From: Candidatus Aenigmatarchaeota archaeon
Lineage (GTDB): Archaea > Aenigmatarchaeota > Aenigmatarchaeia > Aenigmatarchaeales > JACQIB01
Reading direction: 5' to 3'
Length of the DNA stretch: 64,000 nucleotides
Assembly (NCBI GenBank): GCA_016198755.1
Contig: JACQIB010000005.1
Coordinates: forward strand, 128,001-192,000
The notes beneath the pieces are model-generated. The model had not been told where the DNA came from, searched no databases, and saw nothing but the letters and a program-made list of their open reading frames with translations. This document shows, in pieces, positions 27,602 through 55,791 of the stretch (the stretch's first letter is position 1; the number at the start of each line of letters is the position of its first letter). The position numbers and the translations under genes are program-made.

Positions 27602-27841
27602 ATGTTTAACATGGGAACGCAGATTACAATAAGAGATGTGGATACGAAAACATTTAGGGAGTTTAAGGCTGCATCTGTGTCTAGGGGATTGAAATTGGGA
27701 ACTGCAGTAACTTTGGCCATGGAAAAATTCAAGTCAGAAATAGAGGGAAAGGAAAAATTTGCAGCGCTAAAACCCATTAAATGGGGGAAAGGAACGGAAC
27801 GAGTAAGCGAAGATGTTGACAAAATACTTTATGGCGAGTGA
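27602..27841 (+). CDS. Putative VapB-type antitoxin (RHH-like)
   Basis: Small, N-terminal ITIRDVD strand-helix, SEDVDKILYG tail; overlaps PIN gene. Confidence 0.75.
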   Translation: MFNMGTQITIRDVDTKTFREFKAASVSRGLKLGTAVTLAMEKFKSEIEGKEKFAALKPIKWGKGTERVSEDVDKILYGE

Positions 27842-28236
27842 AAATGATCTTTATAGATGCCAGTTTTTTTCTGGCTTATGATAACGAAAATGATGTGCAC
27901 CACAGCAGAGCTTTGGCTATTTTGGATGATATAGAAAAATATGGTCCTGTATTTACATCTGATTATATTCTAAATGAAGTTGTAGGAGTTGGCCTTAGAA
28001 AACTGGGAAAGGAGAGAGCCGTTACTTTGGGACAGCACATACTAAAAACAACTTTCATTATTAATGTAGATGAACATATTTTTTCTGAGAGTTGGGGAGC
28101 ATTTTCAAAGACCGATCTTAATTTAAGTCTTGTTGACTGCACGACATTGGTTATTATGAAGCTTGCGAATGCTGGCAAAATTGCAACCTTTGATAAAGAA
28201 TTCAGAAAAATAAATTATTTGGATGTTTTGGAGTAA
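27838..28236 (+). CDS. vapC: VapC-type PIN toxin
   Basis: IFIDASFF, ILNE, SLVDC, ATFDKEF. Confidence 0.88.
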   Translation: MKMIFIDASFFLAYDNENDVHHSRALAILDDIEKYGPVFTSDYILNEVVGVGLRKLGKERAVTLGQHILKTTFIINVDEHIFSESWGAFSKTDLNLSLVDCTTLVIMKLANAGKIATFDKEFRKINYLDVLE

Positions 28237-28330
28237 AGATATTTTAAGCTTCCTACTCGCTTAATGGAAAGCCTTTTAAAGCTGCCTTTCCCCTAGGAAG
28301 GTTTTTGTTTCAAAAAAGCAATAATTTGGT

Positions 28331-28816
28331 ATGGCGCCTCCGCATGTTTACATCGAAGAAAAGAATGTCAGGGATCATAATAGACGGGGGCGTTTAGTTG
28401 CACTTATTAGATCTGATCCTGGAGTTAATTTTTCTGGGTTAAGGGAGTATATGGGAGAAAGGGGAACAGATGGGAGTGTAAAGCCGCTGCCGCAGGGAAG
28501 CCTGACTTATCATTTGGATATATTGGAAGAATTTGGACTGGTAAAGAGCGTTTATAGAGGCAGGGAAAGGCTTCTCTATCCAACAGGTTTCAAAGTACCT
28601 AGAAACCATCTGAGAACTGAAGAGGATAATAGAATATTGGATATTTTGAGAGGAGTACCGGAAGTAACCCAGAGCAGGCTGGCAGAGCTTGCTGAAGTTG
28701 CGCAGAGCACAATGAGCTATAGGCTGAGAAGGCTTGCTGATTATATAAAAGTGGAAAGGGTTGGGAAAGAAAATAGGTTGTTTGCAAAGGATGTGGAAGA
28801 TGATAAGGTTATTTAA
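28331..28816 (+). CDS. Double winged-HTH transcriptional regulator
   Basis: PGVNFSGL ... LTYHLDILE; TQSRLAELAEVAQSTMSYRLRRL. Confidence 0.8.
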   Translation: MAPPHVYIEEKNVRDHNRRGRLVALIRSDPGVNFSGLREYMGERGTDGSVKPLPQGSLTYHLDILEEFGLVKSVYRGRERLLYPTGFKVPRNHLRTEEDNRILDILRGVPEVTQSRLAELAEVAQSTMSYRLRRLADYIKVERVGKENRLFAKDVEDDKVI

Positions 28817-28846
28817 GTTTTGATTATCGAGTTTTAACTGGATAAT

Positions 28847-29626
28847 ATGGTAACAACAAACAGGGATATAATAGATAATTTAGCTCCTCTGCTGGATTCC
28901 CCTAAATACAATGAACAGGGGATTGGAGCTCCACTAAGGTTTGTGAATGGTTCTGTTGATGGGCAACTGGACTGGAAAAAGAAAGGTTACCTATCCAGAT
29001 TAACATGGTCTGAGGCAAGGAGAGTTGCTGGATTAAGGGGGGAGAAATTGTGCTCCCTTCCAGGAGCGATTGCAAACCTTAGCTTTATTCCTGATGGGTA
29101 TGGGGTTCATTTGGCTGGACCTGTTTTTTATAGACCCGAACCTGTTGGGACTGCAAAACCTGCTGCTGAAGGGATAAGGGTTGAGAGGGTTTATATGCTA
29201 AAGGAACCTGCGGTAACCCTTAGTGGAGAGCAGGTTGTGCTGGATGGAGTGAATGTAAAAAATGGTTCATTGGTATGCAAAGATTTTATAGATGCTGAGC
29301 TGGCATTTGAGGATTATAGATTGAGAGCTGTTGGAATGGATGATTTTATTGGGCTTGCTGAAAGAAATGGGCTGTTTAGGAGGGGTGAACTGGAGGCTGT
29401 TAGTATAAGGGATTTGGAGGAACAGCCGAAAGCTGAAGAAAGGGTTGTTCTTGACAAAAAAGTGCATTTCCAGTTTGGTGGGGGGAGATGGGCTCTTCCA
29501 AAATTAAGTTCTTTGGGTAATAGGGTTACAGAAGAGGGGAATAATGTTGCTTTGCTTTATGTTGAGTTTGTGCCAGCAACTGAAGCTGATGGATTTACTC
29601 TAGTAATGCCGGAAAGAAAGATTTAA
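28847..29626 (+). CDS. Hypothetical protein
   Basis: 259-aa ORF, no motif recognised. Confidence 0.6.
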   Translation: MVTTNRDIIDNLAPLLDSPKYNEQGIGAPLRFVNGSVDGQLDWKKKGYLSRLTWSEARRVAGLRGEKLCSLPGAIANLSFIPDGYGVHLAGPVFYRPEPVGTAKPAAEGIRVERVYMLKEPAVTLSGEQVVLDGVNVKNGSLVCKDFIDAELAFEDYRLRAVGMDDFIGLAERNGLFRRGELEAVSIRDLEEQPKAEERVVLDKKVHFQFGGGRWALPKLSSLGNRVTEEGNNVALLYVEFVPATEADGFTLVMPERKI

Positions 29627-29629
29627 AAT

Positions 29630-29811
29630 GACCGTCAGGTGCAAGGGGCCGAAGCCCCAAGCCTGCGGTTGCTCTTGCTCTTTGGGTTTGTGAAAACCTT
29701 TGGCACTCACCTCTCAAATTAAATTGCTGCCGGCGGGGTTTTCATCCGCAGCAGCTGAAAAGAGTTACCGGCCCTCACAGGAGGTATCTGTAAGAGCCCA
29801 CCGCGCTGACC
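29630..29811 (-). ncRNA. Unidentified structured RNA (~180 nt)
   Basis: GC-rich intergenic stems whose G-U pairs and C(UUCG)G loop favour the minus strand; TTTATATA box at 29834-29827; ends before a U run. Confidence 0.65.
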
Positions 29812-29875
29812 AGAACTATGGGGGAGTATATAAACTCCTTATGAAGAGGTAATAGGGACTTTAGGTTCAGCTTTT

Positions 29876-30655
29876 TCAGGGCTTTTGGAAAGCTAGGAAA
29901 ACCCCTTCTATATCGTCTCCATTAATTCCGGAAGAATGGACTCTCTCGTTTCCTGCTTTTGAAAACCCTTCAGAAAGCATAGCAGCCTGTGTCATATCTC
30001 TATACTCGTCAAAAATAGGTATACTCAGCCTGTCATAGATTATTACCATACCATGTGGCATAACCCAAGAAGATACTAAAGGAGCTACTCTCCTTCTTAA
30101 AAATGCTGCAGATTCTGGGTTGGAAAGTCTGGTATTATGGGCTTCAGTAATGGTAGCCACTATATTTGTTAAAACAACTGCATCGTATTTTTTGTCAGGT
30201 TTGTAAGTTAAAACGTCCTGCACAGAAAAGCTTGCATTGGCTGCAGAATATTTGGCTTTTCTCGTTTCTGCAACCTGTATTGATTCATCCACCATATCAA
30301 TTCCGTGCACTGTTGATTCTGGGTTTTGCAAAGCATACCAGACAGTTTTCAGTCCTGTAAAGCAGCCTGCATCAAGTATAGCTTTTCTTCCTTTTAGTTT
30401 CCTGTTTACCTTTTCTGTTATTGTTAGATTCTCTCCGTATTTAGCTGATTCAAAAAGATGGTCTACACCATTACTTGCCTGGAAGGCATAAGCTGAAAAA
30501 TCAGCACTGCTTGGACGCTGCGCGTTCCCAAGAAGACGAAACAGTTCTCTGGCCTTATCTATGCCGAGTATGGAAATCTCTTCTTCTACTAGCTGAGAGT
30601 CACTGATTCTTCTCACGCCTTCTGCTGCTAAATAGGCTGGCAGGCTAAGAACCAT
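29876..30655 (-). CDS. Class I SAM-dependent methyltransferase
   Basis: ILDAGCFTG, HGIDM, YDAVV. Confidence 0.85.
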   Translation of the reverse strand: MVLSLPAYLAAEGVRRISDSQLVEEEISILGIDKARELFRLLGNAQRPSSADFSAYAFQASNGVDHLFESAKYGENLTITEKVNRKLKGRKAILDAGCFTGLKTVWYALQNPESTVHGIDMVDESIQVAETRKAKYSAANASFSVQDVLTYKPDKKYDAVVLTNIVATITEAHNTRLSNPESAAFLRRRVAPLVSSWVMPHGMVIIYDRLSIPIFDEYRDMTQAAMLSEGFSKAGNERVHSSGINGDDIEGVFLAFQKP

Positions 30656-30705
30656 TAGAAACCCCCAGTGCAAAAAGCTTTTAAAGGTTTGGTGGGAAGG
30701 ATGAA

Positions 30706-31353
30706 TTGGTAATAATGGCTATAGAAGGGTTTTTACTCCCGGTCAGGTTTTACGGATATGACTCTGTAATCTACTTAGTTTCAGCGCTAATAGGGCTGGC
30801 AATAGCCTATAAGGCTTACAAGCTTTATTCAGTTTCAGAAAAAAACCAGCACTATAACCTGTTTGTAGGGTTTTCTATACTGGCTGTTGGATTATTAACA
30901 ATTTCCTTAACAAGTGCCTATTCCTATCTGAAGTTTTTTGAGCAGAAGGAACTGCTTTTGTTTAACGGGTATTTTGATGTGGCTGATGTAGGTTACTGGA
31001 TTTACTTTGGTGCAAGCTTTTTGGCATACTGGTTTTTGATAAACATGTATGCTCCTGATAAAAAGGGTGTTTTCCTTTTGAGCCTTCCAATGACATTTAA
31101 CTATTATTCCTATCTGAATGTTGGATTGTTCTTTTTTGCTCTTTATCTGGCTTTCAGGAGCGCTGTAAGCTATTTCTCGAACAAAAACCAGAATGGATTC
31201 TGGGTTATGGGAGCATTTGTGTTAATGGCTGTTTATCATGCGGTTTTGCTTTTTACGCCTTTCTTTAAAGGGTTCTATATTTTGGCGCATGTTTCTTTGA
31301 TTTTGAGCTTTGCTTTCCTGCTCTATATGCTCATAAGGGTGAATAGAGAGTGA
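30706..31353 (+). CDS. Multi-pass membrane protein, possible sensor
   Basis: About 7 TM segments; overlaps downstream wHTH gene. Confidence 0.7.
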   Translation: MVIMAIEGFLLPVRFYGYDSVIYLVSALIGLAIAYKAYKLYSVSEKNQHYNLFVGFSILAVGLLTISLTSAYSYLKFFEQKELLLFNGYFDVADVGYWIYFGASFLAYWFLINMYAPDKKGVFLLSLPMTFNYYSYLNVGLFFFALYLAFRSAVSYFSNKNQNGFWVMGAFVLMAVYHAVLLFTPFFKGFYILAHVSLILSFAFLLYMLIRVNRE

Positions 31354-31664
31354 TACAGCAGGTTAAAAATAAATGGGAGGAAGAGGATGATAGCAGAAGG
31401 TCTAAAATAGGAATTTTAGTGGATATTTTAAGGCTTATACAAAAGAAAGGCGGGGTTGCAAAGCCAACACATATTCTTTATGGTGCTAATCTTAGTCATG
31501 TCAGATTAAACAAATATATGGATGTTTTAATGGATAAGCAGTTTGTAGAAACAGTAAATGCCGGGGGGAGGGGAGTTTACAGGATTACTGATAAGGGAAT
31601 GGAATTTGTAAGGGAGTTTAGGAAAGTGGAGCAGTTTTCTGAAGCTTTTGGAGTGCCAATCTAG
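31350..31664 (+). CDS. Winged-HTH regulator (COG3432-like)
   Basis: RRSKIGILVDIL, PTHILYGANLS, YRITDKG. Confidence 0.85.
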   Translation: MIQQVKNKWEEEDDSRRSKIGILVDILRLIQKKGGVAKPTHILYGANLSHVRLNKYMDVLMDKQFVETVNAGGRGVYRITDKGMEFVREFRKVEQFSEAFGVPI

Positions 31665-32035
31665 GCTTTCTTGAAAAAGCAGTAATCAACAAGTTTTTCG
31701 GGACTTACAGTACCTGATATAAGTGCCTGTGCAGAAAAATCTTCTATTGTTTCTGAAGAGATTATTGGTTTGTTTTTTGCATAGCTGTAGGCTATTTCCA
31801 GTGCAACTGTTTTGCCTATATAGCCATCCTTTGAGTATATGTAAACAAAATCTATATTATCTATTTCTTTGAAAGCGCGCAACAATGCTGACTTTTCGCT
31901 TTCAAGAGTGTCCTGCTGGGAGCTGTCCCATTCTCCTGCGGTTTTTGCATTTATTCCTTTGGACTTTAACAGCTGGAGAAGTTTAACTATTTCCAGATAA
32001 AACTTCCTGCTACCTGCGATAAAAACAGATTTCAT
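31661..32035 (-). CDS. Nucleoside 2-deoxyribosyltransferase-like domain protein
   Basis: VFIAGS, GYIGKTVALEIAYSYAKNKPI. Confidence 0.6.
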   Translation of the reverse strand: MKSVFIAGSRKFYLEIVKLLQLLKSKGINAKTAGEWDSSQQDTLESEKSALLRAFKEIDNIDFVYIYSKDGYIGKTVALEIAYSYAKNKPIISSETIEDFSAQALISGTVSPEKLVDYCFFKKA

Positions 32036-32066: not shown

Positions 32067-34574
32067 TTAAGCAGACAGACCAGCCTCTTTTCTTAACAAA
32101 GCTGCCATGTCTGTGCGCTCCCAGGTAAAGTCTGGGTCGTTCCTTCCAAAATGGCCGAAAGCTGAGGTTTTTTTGTAGATTGGCCTGCGAAGATTGAGAT
32201 GGCTTATTATTGAGGCTGGGCGGAAGTCAAACTGTTTCTTTACAAGTTCTTCAATTTTTTCCTCTGGGAGCTTGTTTGTTCCAAAGGTGTTTACTGTGAT
32301 TGAAACTGGGTGGGCAACACCTATAGCATAGGCAACCTGTATTTCACATTTGTCTGCTAAGCCTGCTGCTACAACATTTTTAGCAACATAACGGGCCATG
32401 TAAGCCGCTGAACGGTCAACTTTTGTCGGGTCCTTTCCTGAGTTATGCACCACAAAACCGTTTGCTGTGAAAGCATGGGTTACAGGAATGTTGAGGTCAT
32501 ATGTACGATTGAAAGAAGGGATTTTGCGGGAAGCTTTTGTATAGTAATGCTTCATGAAAAAGAGCTGTTTTAGGTAATCGAACTCCGGATCGCTTTTTAG
32601 GAAGCTTTCATAAGCGTTCAAAAAGTCTTTTAACTTTTCATATGTAAGTTCTTTTGTTGCTTTGCCTTCAAATTTCCTTGTAAAGCGACTTATTTGAGCA
32701 ATATCACTTCTCTGCTCCAGAACCGGAAGTTTTTTGAAAAGGCGTTTTATCCTCTGCCTCTGGTTTGGTATAACAGAACGGTCTGTTTTGTTTTCCAGCG
32801 ATACTCTGTTCAATATTGCTTGTTTTCTTGGAAGTTGAAAACCCACTTCATTTTTGAAAATTCTAATGCTATCTGTGCCTTTTATTATCACATTATAAAG
32901 TGCATGCTGGCTTGTTATTTTTCTTCCCCTGATTTCAGAGACTTTTCCAGGTTCAGTTTTGCATATGTGGGATATTATTCCGAAATTTAAAAGCAGGAGC
33001 TGAACATCTTCTGCAAGCTGCTTACTTGTTGTTGCTAAATGTGCTCTGGGAGAGGTTTTGTTTCTGCCGTCAATTCTAACAGATCCATCTGTGTCAAAAA
33101 GGCCGCGCAGAAAAGCGGCAACATTTGATTTTGTACCATTCCATATAGCCTCCGGTACAGTTTTATCAAAGGAACGCAGCCTTTTCAAGCCTATGAACTC
33201 AAGATATGCACGCAGTTCTACTCCACCCATATACGCCCAGTGACCGTATGCCTTACCCTTATCTCCAAAGAGGCGAAGGAAAAGCTCTTGCACATTTCTT
33301 TTTTGTTCTTCTTCACAGATACAAATTCTTATGCATCCTTCATCTGTACAATCCCCATCACCTACAAGCAGACCAAGCAAATAGGCATAATCATCTGTAA
33401 GCTTGTCTGGAAAGCTGTATTTTTTCTTTCGTCCTTCTGCTGTACCTTCTTTGTAAGAAAACTTGAATTTTCCAATATCCCCATTCCCAAATAACCTGTC
33501 TTTTTTCTGTATAGGCAATATATCCCCGGGCATTATTTCACTCATGGATTTCCATATATAATTTCCTTCTGAATCGAGAACTCTTATCTGGTGGTTGGGT
33601 GTGGCTTCCAGACTATATCCATCTGAAGTTAACAAAAGCATTGTTTCTTTTGTTCCATTGTCCCACCACTCTCCTGCAGGCATAGGGTGCACATCTGTTT
33701 TTACCAGTGTTCCAACTAGGGGTTTGCACTCCTCTATTTTTCTTGTTCCTTTGTCTGTATTTATTCTGCTATGCCCAGCAAGGCAGAATGCACCTCCTCC
33801 ATGCCTGCCCATTCCACCGTAAGTGTCCATTATTATTTTTCTTCCTGTAACTCCAGAATCTCCTGGAGGGCCTCCTATAATAAATTTTCCGGTAGAGTTT
33901 ATGTGGAACTGTGTTTCAGAATCTATCCATTTCCCGCATACAGGTTTTATCACTTTTTCAATAACATCACTTTTCAGCTTCTCATAAGTAACATCTGGAG
34001 AGTGCTGGATTGCTATAACAATTGTTGTTACTCTTTTAGGAACACTGCCCTCATACTCTACTGTTACTTGAGACTTCCCGTCTGGCCTTGCCCATGAAAG
34101 TTCACCTGAGCGGCGGGCTTCTGAAAGTTTCTGTGTTAATCTGTGAGCCAGAATAATTGGTAGTGGCATTAATTCTGGGGTTTCATTGGAAGCGTAACCA
34201 AACATTAAACCTTGGTCTCCTGCACCCTGTTCCCTCGCTTCAGTTGCTGTAACTCCCTGTGATATGTCTGGACTCTGCTCATGCAAAGCAACTAAAACAG
34301 CACAACTGTCTGCATCAAATCCATACTCAGGCTTGTCATATCCAACCTGCCTTATTGTATTGCGGACAACGCCCTGAACATCAATATAACCTTTTGTTGT
34401 AACCTCCCCTGCAACAACAATTAAACCTGTTGTGGTCAGGGTTTCTACAGCCACGCGGGAAAAGGGATCCTGCTTGAAAAGTGCATCCAGTACTGAGTCT
34501 GATATTTGGTCACAAATTTTGTCCGGATGACCTTCTGTTACCGACTCTGATGTAAACAAAGATGTTTTGCCCAT
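32067..34574 (-). CDS. metK: Bacterial/eukaryotic-type methionine adenosyltransferase containing an intein
   Basis: [45 protein letters not shown] split by intein; SD AAGGTGA. Confidence 0.95.
32442..33785 (-). mobile_element. 448-aa intein with LAGLIDADG endonuclease in MetK
   Basis: Starts CLAG, block [14 protein letters not shown] and [10 protein letters not shown], ends VVHN followed by Ser+1. Confidence 0.95.
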
Positions 34575-34630
34575 TAAATCACCTTTCACTTTCCTAGGGC
34601 AGAAAGTATAAAAAGCTTACTGTAGATTTG

Positions 34631-55259: not shown

Positions 55260-55392
55260 GGCCCGATGGCTCAGACTGGTTAGAGCACCACACTGATAAT
55301 GTGGGGGTCGAGAGTTCAAAGCTCAGGGGGACGTTTCCCCCTACAGCCCTACCCCCTCTTGGTGGAGCTGGAAAATCTCTCTCGGGCCACCA
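55260..55392 (+). tRNA. tRNA-Ile(GAT) with a 55-nt T-loop intron (55321-55375)
   Basis: GGCCCGA/TCGGGCC acceptor, CCACA-CTGATAA-TGTGG, GAGAG-TTCAAA[intron]T-CTCTC, CCA. Confidence 0.9.
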
Positions 55393-55506
55393 CTTAATCT
55401 TTTACCGGAAACTTCTGCTGGGAGTATAACACTGTTATATTAGTGGACCTTGTATAGCGATTTGCGCTTCATAAGGAGTTTAAATAATGAGCAAGAGTTT
55501 TGCTGT

Positions 55507-55791
55507 ATGTTAGATGGTGTGTGGTATTTGGGACAAACCATAGATGCTCCTTTGAAAAATGGAAGAAAAACCCCAGTTCACCTATATTCCGAGGGAAGTG
55601 ATCCAAAGCCATTTGGAAGCTATGCTGATGCAGCAGCAATGGCCATGAAATTTAATAGCGGACACTGGGAAGGACAACCAACAACAGGGGGCTCATGGAC
55701 TGTTTATAGTATGAAAGAACTGAAAGGAATGAAAATTACAAACCCACCGGCAAGGCCAAGGTCTGCTGCTGAAATACCGGATCTAGAATAG
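55507..55791 (+). CDS. Hypothetical protein
   Basis: ATG 55507 is 28 nt after TTTAAATA. Confidence 0.5.
   Translation: MLDGVWYLGQTIDAPLKNGRKTPVHLYSEGSDPKPFGSYADAAAMAMKFNSGHWEGQPTTGGSWTVYSMKELKGMKITNPPARPRSAAEIPDLE

Follow-up and report, generated by a model that had tools for sequence, protein, structure and literature searches.

A plausible lineage-specific small RNA gene in the genome of a Candidatus Aenigmatarchaeota archaeon

Results

We analyzed an intergenic locus in a 64,000-nucleotide (nt) stretch of DNA (the window; C3:128001-192000) from a Candidatus Aenigmatarchaeota archaeon, whose genome assembly amounts to 0.89 Mb in six contigs, with a guanine plus cytosine (GC) content of 40% and an estimated completeness of 89%. 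The locus lies inside a 249-nt intergenic gap, and its minus strand may carry a stand-alone, lineage-specific, structured small non-coding RNA gene, a reading that we hold to have about an even chance of being correct on the evidence of the sequence. The candidate is best described as a plausible lineage-specific small RNA and not as a demonstrated new class. A promoter match, a terminator type, an island of high GC content, a strand asymmetry and a loop complementarity can be read directly in the sequence, and from these we infer transcription, the transcript ends and a function. The original prediction had described a promoter-like box and a multi-stem RNA on the minus strand and had offered a new class of non-coding RNA as one interpretation. 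An RNA gene on this strand, driven by a promoter of its own, remains plausible in view of the promoter, its spacing, the GC content, the strand bias of the core and the loop complement; the designation as a new class is not supported.

Promoter and transcript ends

Upstream of the candidate RNA, on the minus strand, lies the 19-mer TTCATAAGGAGTTTATATA (29827-29845), which consists of a AAGGAG element resembling the transcription factor B recognition element (BRE; 29840-29835) followed by the TATA box TTTATATA (29834-29827). This 19-mer matches another sequence in the window, at 55468-55486, in 18 of 19 positions. The promoter 14-mer AAGGAGTTTAWATA is present in exactly three copies in the genome, and the other two are located 20-22 nt before the ATG of short open reading frames (ORFs) of 94 and 104 amino acids (aa): the ATG of the 94-aa ORF, at 55507, lies 20 nt after the TATA box, and that of the 104-aa ORF lies 22 nt after the third copy. 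The position of the promoter copy 20 nt ahead of the ATG at 55507 suggests a leaderless mRNA. No ORF follows the copy at the candidate locus. We also observed that GAGCAAGAG is common to the 20-nt interval between TATA box and ATG at 55468-55791 and to a linker of the candidate RNA.

Similar promoters precede the transfer RNA (tRNA) genes of this organism. A TATA-like 8-mer was found at 27 of the 35 tRNA 5' ends examined; in 19 of these 27 cases its distance to the mature 5' end downstream is 20-24 nt, and 22 nt is the commonest spacing (seven genes). Applied to the candidate, the spacing at tRNA and leaderless genes predicts transcription initiation on the minus strand at 29802-29806, most likely at G29804, which is 22 nt past the TATA box and is also the first base of the predicted closing helix, GCGGU. 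An earlier placement of the 5' end at 29811, where the sequence GGTCAG starts 23 nt past the first T of the TATA box, appears to be about 7 nt too far upstream, as the promoter spacing of this genome gives approximately 29804 (29806-29802). With a start near 29804, the outer end pairing GUCAG/CUGAC (29810-29806/29638-29634, minus strand) probably falls outside the transcript.

At the other end, a run of four T residues (T4) in CATTTTAAAT (29625-29628, minus strand) is the likely terminator. The sequence CATTTTAA resembles the endings of two tRNA genes of this genome, at loci L125 (CCCCATTTTAATTC) and L135 (CACCACTTTTAATAC), which are likewise followed by T4 and A. The run overlaps the stop codon of a convergent ORF (28847-29626) by 2 nt. 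Transcription would thus proceed from the candidate's own BRE/TATA promoter, starting at about 29804, to the T4 run at 29628-29625, and promoter and terminator would delimit a minus-strand RNA of about 177-180 nt.

Predicted fold

In the predicted fold, a closing helix of 5 bp encloses three hairpins, and beyond it come a UUCG hairpin of very high stability and a U tail. Helix pair probabilities across the fold are 0.76-1.0; coordinates in this section are given for the minus strand. The hairpins, end pairings, 8-nt loop complement, TATA box and GTG frame listed in the original prediction are all present. The closing helix, GCGGU/ACCGC (29804-29800/29669-29665), has a mean pair probability of 0.77 when folding starts at 29804. 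Hairpin 1 (29798-29770), formed by GGCUCUUACAG and CUGUGAGGGCC, comprises 11 bp with pair probabilities of 0.95-0.98, including two G.U pairs that read as C-A mismatches on the plus strand. Its 7-nt loop, AUACCUC (29787-29781), contains the start of ACCUCC (29785-29780), a copy of the anti-Shine-Dalgarno (anti-SD) sequence at the 3' end of the organism's 16S ribosomal RNA (rRNA), GGAUCACCUCC.

The hairpin 2 domain (29702-29769; pair probabilities 0.76-0.94) has a GC stem of 10 bp with one bulged C (29755-29726; probability 0.94), topped by the loop AUGAAAACC (29745-29737). The GC hairpin is enclosed by a lower stem, CUUUUCA/UGAGAGG (29762-29756/29716-29710), together with GGUA/UGCC, and a one-sided loop of 9 nt separates the enclosing stems from the GC stem. 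The lower stem incorporates part of the Shine-Dalgarno (SD)-like sequence GAGAGGUGA (29715-29707). Hairpin 3, GGUUU-UCAC-AAACC (29698-29685), is part of the predicted fold and is followed by a purine-rich linker, CAAAGAGCAAGAGCA (29670-29684), which is unpaired or weakly paired in the minimum free energy (MFE) structure and whose low complexity makes it a source of chance BLAST matches in relatives. Finally, the 3' hairpin GC-UU-GGGGC(UUCG)GCCCC-UU-GC (29641-29662) has a core (29658-29645) with a pair probability of 1.0.

Two properties of this fold are specific to the minus strand or rare in randomized sequence. Folded as the minus strand, the 183-nt core has an MFE of -74.7 kcal/mol, against -66.9 kcal/mol for the plus strand; the minus strand is better by 7.8 kcal/mol because four helix positions are G.U pairs. 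In addition, the hairpin 2 loop segment UGAAAACC (29744-29737) is exactly complementary over 8 nt to GGUUUUCA (29698-29691), the 5' part of hairpin 3, and among 400 dinucleotide shuffles only 1 contained a hairpin loop with a perfect complement of 8 nt or more. The two segments could form an H-type pseudoknot or an alternative pairing, if sterically feasible. The original prediction had named two possible pseudoknots; the 8-nt loop complement is exact and rare in shuffles, and the 5-nt complement between ACCUC and GAGGU is trivial by chance.

GC content and genome-wide comparison

To place the locus in the context of the genome, we applied a crude ORF mask, which left 167 non-ORF stretches of at least 120 nt; these were cut into 253 segments, both strands of which were folded. 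The 249-nt gap has a GC content of 51% and its 182-nt core one of 57%, and the gap ranks 8th among the 167 stretches by GC content. All but two of the top 23 stretches are rRNA or tRNA genes, four of these 21 having been assigned by eye from the acceptor stem, T loop and CCA, and the stretches below the top 23 have a mean GC content of 37.5% (standard deviation 5.5). With most of the GC-richest gaps occupied by tRNA and rRNA, high GC content is a good marker of stable RNA genes in this genome. The two exceptions, neither tRNA nor rRNA, are the present locus and C5:118816-119024 (L136). The latter, outside the window, was also GC-rich and had no Rfam match at E ≤ 0.1. By energy per base, the locus ranks 23rd among the non-ORF strand-segments.

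Searches for homologues

Homologues of the candidate RNA were sought at several phylogenetic distances. BLAST against its own genome returned the locus itself only, and BLAST against 41 relatives gave a best non-self match of E = 0.006. Matches at 19 loci of these relatives, starting from query position 130 or beyond, were rejected, consisting only of 12-18-nt seeds over AAGAGCAAGAGCAA-like stretches in apparently coding sequence. Among 42 genomes of the order, BLAST found one 30-nt match (in G004) and no real homologue. Run on the 42 order genomes and on 151 class genomes, a single-sequence covariance model of the candidate (R1) recovered the locus itself and no other match; in five family genomes searched with lax filters it found nothing. 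Scanning metagenome_contigs with the neighboring methyltransferase yielded 74 loci that share only the S-adenosylmethionine (SAM)-binding domain, and R1 found nothing real in them, the one match scoring 10.1 bits (E = 1.7). A 17-mer scanned against viral_contigs gave three chance matches, and a 21-nt pattern scanned against genome_contigs gave none. Local alignment to 20 tRNA or GC-rich loci recovered the promoter match only, with other scores falling within the shuffle range of 20-30. The suggestion of a new class of non-coding RNA is therefore not supported, as the element was found in a single copy only across the order, class, family, metagenome and genome_contigs searches.

Comparison with known RNA families

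At gathering thresholds, Rfam 15 identified no family at the locus, riboswitches and ribozymes included, and at E ≤ 10 it gave four matches in 29400-30000, all far under threshold; the expectation that no known family would be strongly matched was borne out. The models for RNase P RNA (RF00373), signal recognition particle (SRP) RNA (Archaea_SRP, RF01857) and 5S rRNA (RF00001) have no match at the locus and do match elsewhere in the genome, at C5:70763-71068 (112.1 bits, cut-off 84), C3:212783-213055 (114.1 bits, cut-off 96.5) and C5:138216-138331 (74.1 bits, cut-off 38), respectively. Because good copies of each are encoded elsewhere, the candidate is not RNase P RNA, SRP RNA or 5S rRNA.

Inspection for box C/D features by eye found only GGAUGA (29747-29742) and one CUGA (29638-29635), about 100 nt apart, with no C'/D' pair, and the best match to small nucleolar RNA models (17.4 bits) is at 29413-29460, outside the locus. 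Nor does the candidate look like a box H/ACA RNA by eye: hairpin 1 is without an internal loop, the 9-nt loop of hairpin 2 is one-sided and tandem G.A pairs are absent there, and there is no Rfam match. Collectively, the family models and motif checks agree with the earlier observation that the locus lacks RNase P, SRP, 5S, tRNA and C/D-box identity. The remaining resemblance is to sR084/HmsA of Yersinia pestis (RF02761), in which hairpin 1 corresponds to the model's 3' hairpin in about 24 of 28 positions; at 15.5 bits against a gathering threshold of 95 (E = 3; E = 1.03 genome-wide) we consider this a chance resemblance, and the family is, unlike the candidate, a plasmid-borne bacterial small RNA (sRNA).

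The candidate also shares an arrangement with H-type pseudoknot riboswitches and operators (preQ1, SAM-II, fluoride), in which a loop pairs with a downstream segment beside an SD-like sequence and a start codon. It differs from them in having no Rfam match, only a poorly spaced 23-codon frame downstream, and no nameable ligand or conserved core.

Interrupted tRNA and rRNA genes of the genome

The stable RNA genes against which the candidate was compared are themselves unusual. ARAGORN reports 9-14 tRNAs in the genome; with the Rfam tRNA model there are 19 matches, of which 16 exceed the cut-off. GC-rich gaps without an Rfam match proved to be tRNA genes with T-loop insertions of 50-120 nt, situated at position 59/60 after TTCAAA or TTCGAA, ending in UGAAAA and belonging to at least three sequence families. 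When the insertions were excised in silico, ARAGORN recognized tRNAs at 23 places, about 19-20 of which were otherwise unfound. Roughly half of this genome's tRNA genes thus escape standard finders. About 20 tRNA genes carry insertions at position 59/60, some of them with D-loop insertions as well (identified by eye). In the window this applies to the gene for tRNA-Ile with anticodon GAU (55260-55392, insertion 55321-55375); the other loci with T-loop insertions are L125-L129, L131, L133-L135, L137, L138, L140, L142 and L143. UUCA and UGAA are able to pair as the 4-bp helix of a bulge-helix-bulge motif, in which AA|G and AA|U would be the bulges. Their length and repetition suggest that the 59/60 insertions are mobile introns. 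T-loop introns at position 59/60 are known in ARMAN-2, the one tested being 13 nt long (PMC3239211).

The genes for the small subunit (SSU) and large subunit (LSU) rRNA look interrupted as well. The SSU model, of 1478 positions, aligns over 1626 nt at C2:201601-203226 (within locus L145, C2:200503-203226), but the canonical 16S 3' end, GGATCACCTCC, is found only some 1.1 kb beyond this alignment, at C2:200503-200513. For the LSU, the first 2494 model positions are spread over 3674 nt at C5:27827-31500 (L146). Both loci are outside the window.

Genomic setting

The gap is flanked upstream of the candidate RNA by a gene for a class I SAM-dependent methyltransferase (29876-30673, minus strand) and on its other side by a 259-aa ORF without a family match (28847-29626, plus strand), which is convergent with the candidate. 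The 259-aa ORF matches neither Pfam nor NCBIfam and, among seven family genomes, occurs in its own genome only. The methyltransferase was found in two of these seven genomes, its own included, the other match being weak (31%); NCBIfam and a PDB sequence search assign it no specific function. The segment between MetRS and MetK (27602-32035) contains a PIN-domain gene, helix-turn-helix proteins and other unassigned ORFs, and looks like a variable island. It is followed by an 840-aa S-adenosylmethionine synthetase of the bacterial MetK type (32067-34589, minus strand; Pfam S-AdoMet_synt N, M and C domains), in which an intein with a LAGLIDADG domain interrupts the gene. Elsewhere the window encodes archaeal housekeeping proteins, including exosome subunits, SBDS, prefoldin, Kae1 and MetRS.

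The four listed sequencing runs are DNA contigs from one groundwater study, which may have supplied the DNA analyzed here, and they show no differences at the locus. Run X1 additionally contains a 424-nt contig at 3x depth that covers only 28802-29010 and has 24 differences over these 209 nt (about 88% identical). A relative of about 88% identity therefore inhabits the same water, a possible source of comparative sequence.

Discussion

Proposed mechanism

If the candidate is a real and independent non-coding RNA, it may act as a riboregulator in which the ACCUCC of the loop of hairpin 1, the most stable of the hairpins, masks AGGAGGU ribosome-binding sites of mRNAs. We put this mechanism forward tentatively, as possible on the sequence and short of probable even on that premise. 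SD sites of the form AGGAGGTAT, with an ATG 4-5 nt later, do exist in the genome. Pairing of 29744-29737 with 29698-29691 would additionally create a pseudoknot or a switch between two folds.

Trans-acting sRNAs of archaea, for example those of Methanosarcina mazei, pair with ribosome-binding sites. Like these SD-pairing sRNAs, the candidate would be promoter-driven, terminated by oligo-T, 100-250 nt long and lineage-specific, with a C/U-rich loop complementary to the SD sequence. It differs from them in that neither a specific target nor a homologue was found, and its host has a reduced, DPANN-like genome of 0.89 Mb in which many genes are apparently leaderless.

Alternative explanations

Several observations weigh against an independent RNA gene, and most of them would fit the main rival explanation, in which the region is a functionless structured spacer that serves as the 3' untranslated region (UTR) and terminator of two convergent genes in a fast-evolving, orphan-rich segment and the promoter is a relic or a gene-less duplicate. 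The fold is only modestly better than chance (MFE -74.8 kcal/mol, z = -2.35, with 6 of 200 shuffles folding equally well); in the genome-wide comparison the locus, with z = -2.42 on the minus and -1.16 on the plus strand, ranks only 70th of 506 strand-segments by z; and the two strands of the full 249-nt gap fold alike (-84.5 vs. -84.1 kcal/mol). A T4 run is a weak terminator in archaea, and between the methyltransferase stop codon upstream and the candidate RNA there is no T-run or other terminator, so that read-through could make the region a 3' UTR. Both neighbors are near-orphans: a search of 5.8 billion clustered proteins returned no match for the 259-aa ORF other than itself, and for the methyltransferase a single homologue, of 59% identity, which was not found in 371 class genomes or in the genome_contigs scan. 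Decaying sequence could be present in such a neighborhood. The target scan with the hairpin 1 loop returned generic SD-like matches and no specific target. No search returned a homologue, leaving no signal of covariation or purifying selection; given how distant the relatives in the family are (MetRS 34-50% identical), the absence of homologues counts for little. The four DNA runs do not differ at the locus, so nothing there indicates selection either. A mere spacer would, however, not account for the exact promoter 14-mer, both other copies of which precede ORFs at 20-22 nt, for a GC content of 51-57%, typical of the stable RNA genes and not of the spacers of this genome, for the preference of the core for the minus strand, or for a loop complement as rare as the one observed, and on balance we think a functionless spacer unlikely, though it deserves serious weight. 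We attach a much lower probability to a cis-antisense RNA, in which transcription reads through the weak T4 into 28847-29626, or in reverse, such that the 3' ends pair and affect stability. The overlap of the T4 run with the convergent stop codon is compatible with this idea, and since the first plus-strand T4 after that stop is at 29737-29740 the mRNA would, judging from the sequence, overlap the RNA. T4 followed by A nevertheless appears to end tRNA genes, and antisense action needs neither an elaborate fold nor loop complementarity.

The remaining explanations assign a different role to parts of the same sequence, and each is improbable. The original prediction had offered a switch controlling a micropeptide: a structured leader of about 100 nt would bury GAGAGGUGA in hairpin 2, within the lower stem, and regulate translation of a basic peptide of 23 aa, encoded by the GTG frame MPKVFTNPKSKSNRRLGASAPCT (29706-29635, minus strand). 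In favor of it, GAGAGGUGA matches the anti-SD sequence over AGGUGA(U) and pairs with CUUUUCA in the MFE structure, and the flanking segments have alternative partners, the 8-nt loop complement among them. However, the GTG at 29706 lies only 2 nt after GAGGU, whereas in this genome the commonest spacings for ATG starts of long ORFs are 6-7 nt (32 and 22 cases) and the 16 long ORFs with a spacing of 2 nt include no GTG start; no start codon is found at a spacing of 6-7 nt, the frame crosses the UUCG hairpin, and no homologue was found, the peptide also being too short for protein databases. Translation of the frame is unlikely on these grounds, and the switch is disfavored as a very improbable reading. 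Marginally less probable still is a tRNA-derived or tRNA-mimicking element, which can be drawn in two versions. In one, GCGGUGG/CAACCGC followed by A would be the acceptor stem, hairpin 1 a long anticodon/D stack followed by a 5-nt variable region, and CUCUU-UUCA..AGC-AAGAG a T arm split by a 76-nt insertion; in the other, hairpin 2 would be an acceptor/T minihelix whose 3' side, UGAA-AA-C followed by 5 nt, 7 nt and A, is laid out like that of this genome's tRNA genes with T-loop introns. The predicted start is the first base of GCGGUGG at a tRNA-like promoter spacing, the excised 65-nt core folds as acceptor, 11-bp arm and T arm (-27.9 kcal/mol), and about 20 tRNA genes here have 59/60 insertions of 50-120 nt that end in UGAAAAU, which the hairpin 2 loop UGAAAAC resembles; the promoter type, the GC-rich helices and the T4+A ending are further points of likeness to these genes and to those of ARMAN-2 (PMC3239211). 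In contrast to them, the candidate has no tRNA covariance-model match at E ≤ 10 in 29400-30000, no T-loop motif G[GT]TC[AG]A[ATG][TC]C on either strand, no D arm and no encoded CCA (its 3' side reads ACCGC-A-GGC, and all correctly delimited tRNA 3' ends inspected end in CCA). It would also have U53-A61 instead of G53-C61 and, as read from the sequence, no bulge-helix-bulge where splicing would have to occur; relative to the MFE, folding as a tRNA costs 6.2 kcal/mol, ARAGORN is negative at the locus and on the excised form in standard and mitochondrial modes, and the acceptor GCUGCUG occurs in none of the listed tRNAs. About as improbable as the switch is a pseudoknotted RNA of a new kind, confined to a DPANN lineage with many insertions in its stable RNA genes. 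It would be either a tRNA mimic lacking the D arm, with RNase P, tRNase Z and possibly the splicing endonuclease as its processing enzymes, or an anti-SD decoy adjusting the translation of SD-led genes in a genome that is otherwise largely leaderless.

Significance

To our knowledge, very little has been described of non-coding RNA in DPANN archaea, and a full-text literature search found no small-RNA survey of a DPANN organism. As a single-copy candidate, the proposed lineage-specific small RNA has its present value as a lead. For the genome as a whole, stable RNA genes are well predicted by a GC-rich gap combined with an AAGGAG-TTTAWATA promoter. If the candidate is indeed an RNA gene, the combination of an anti-SD loop and a pseudoknot would provide a testable mechanism, and a genome of less than 1 Mb would still keep a dedicated regulatory RNA.

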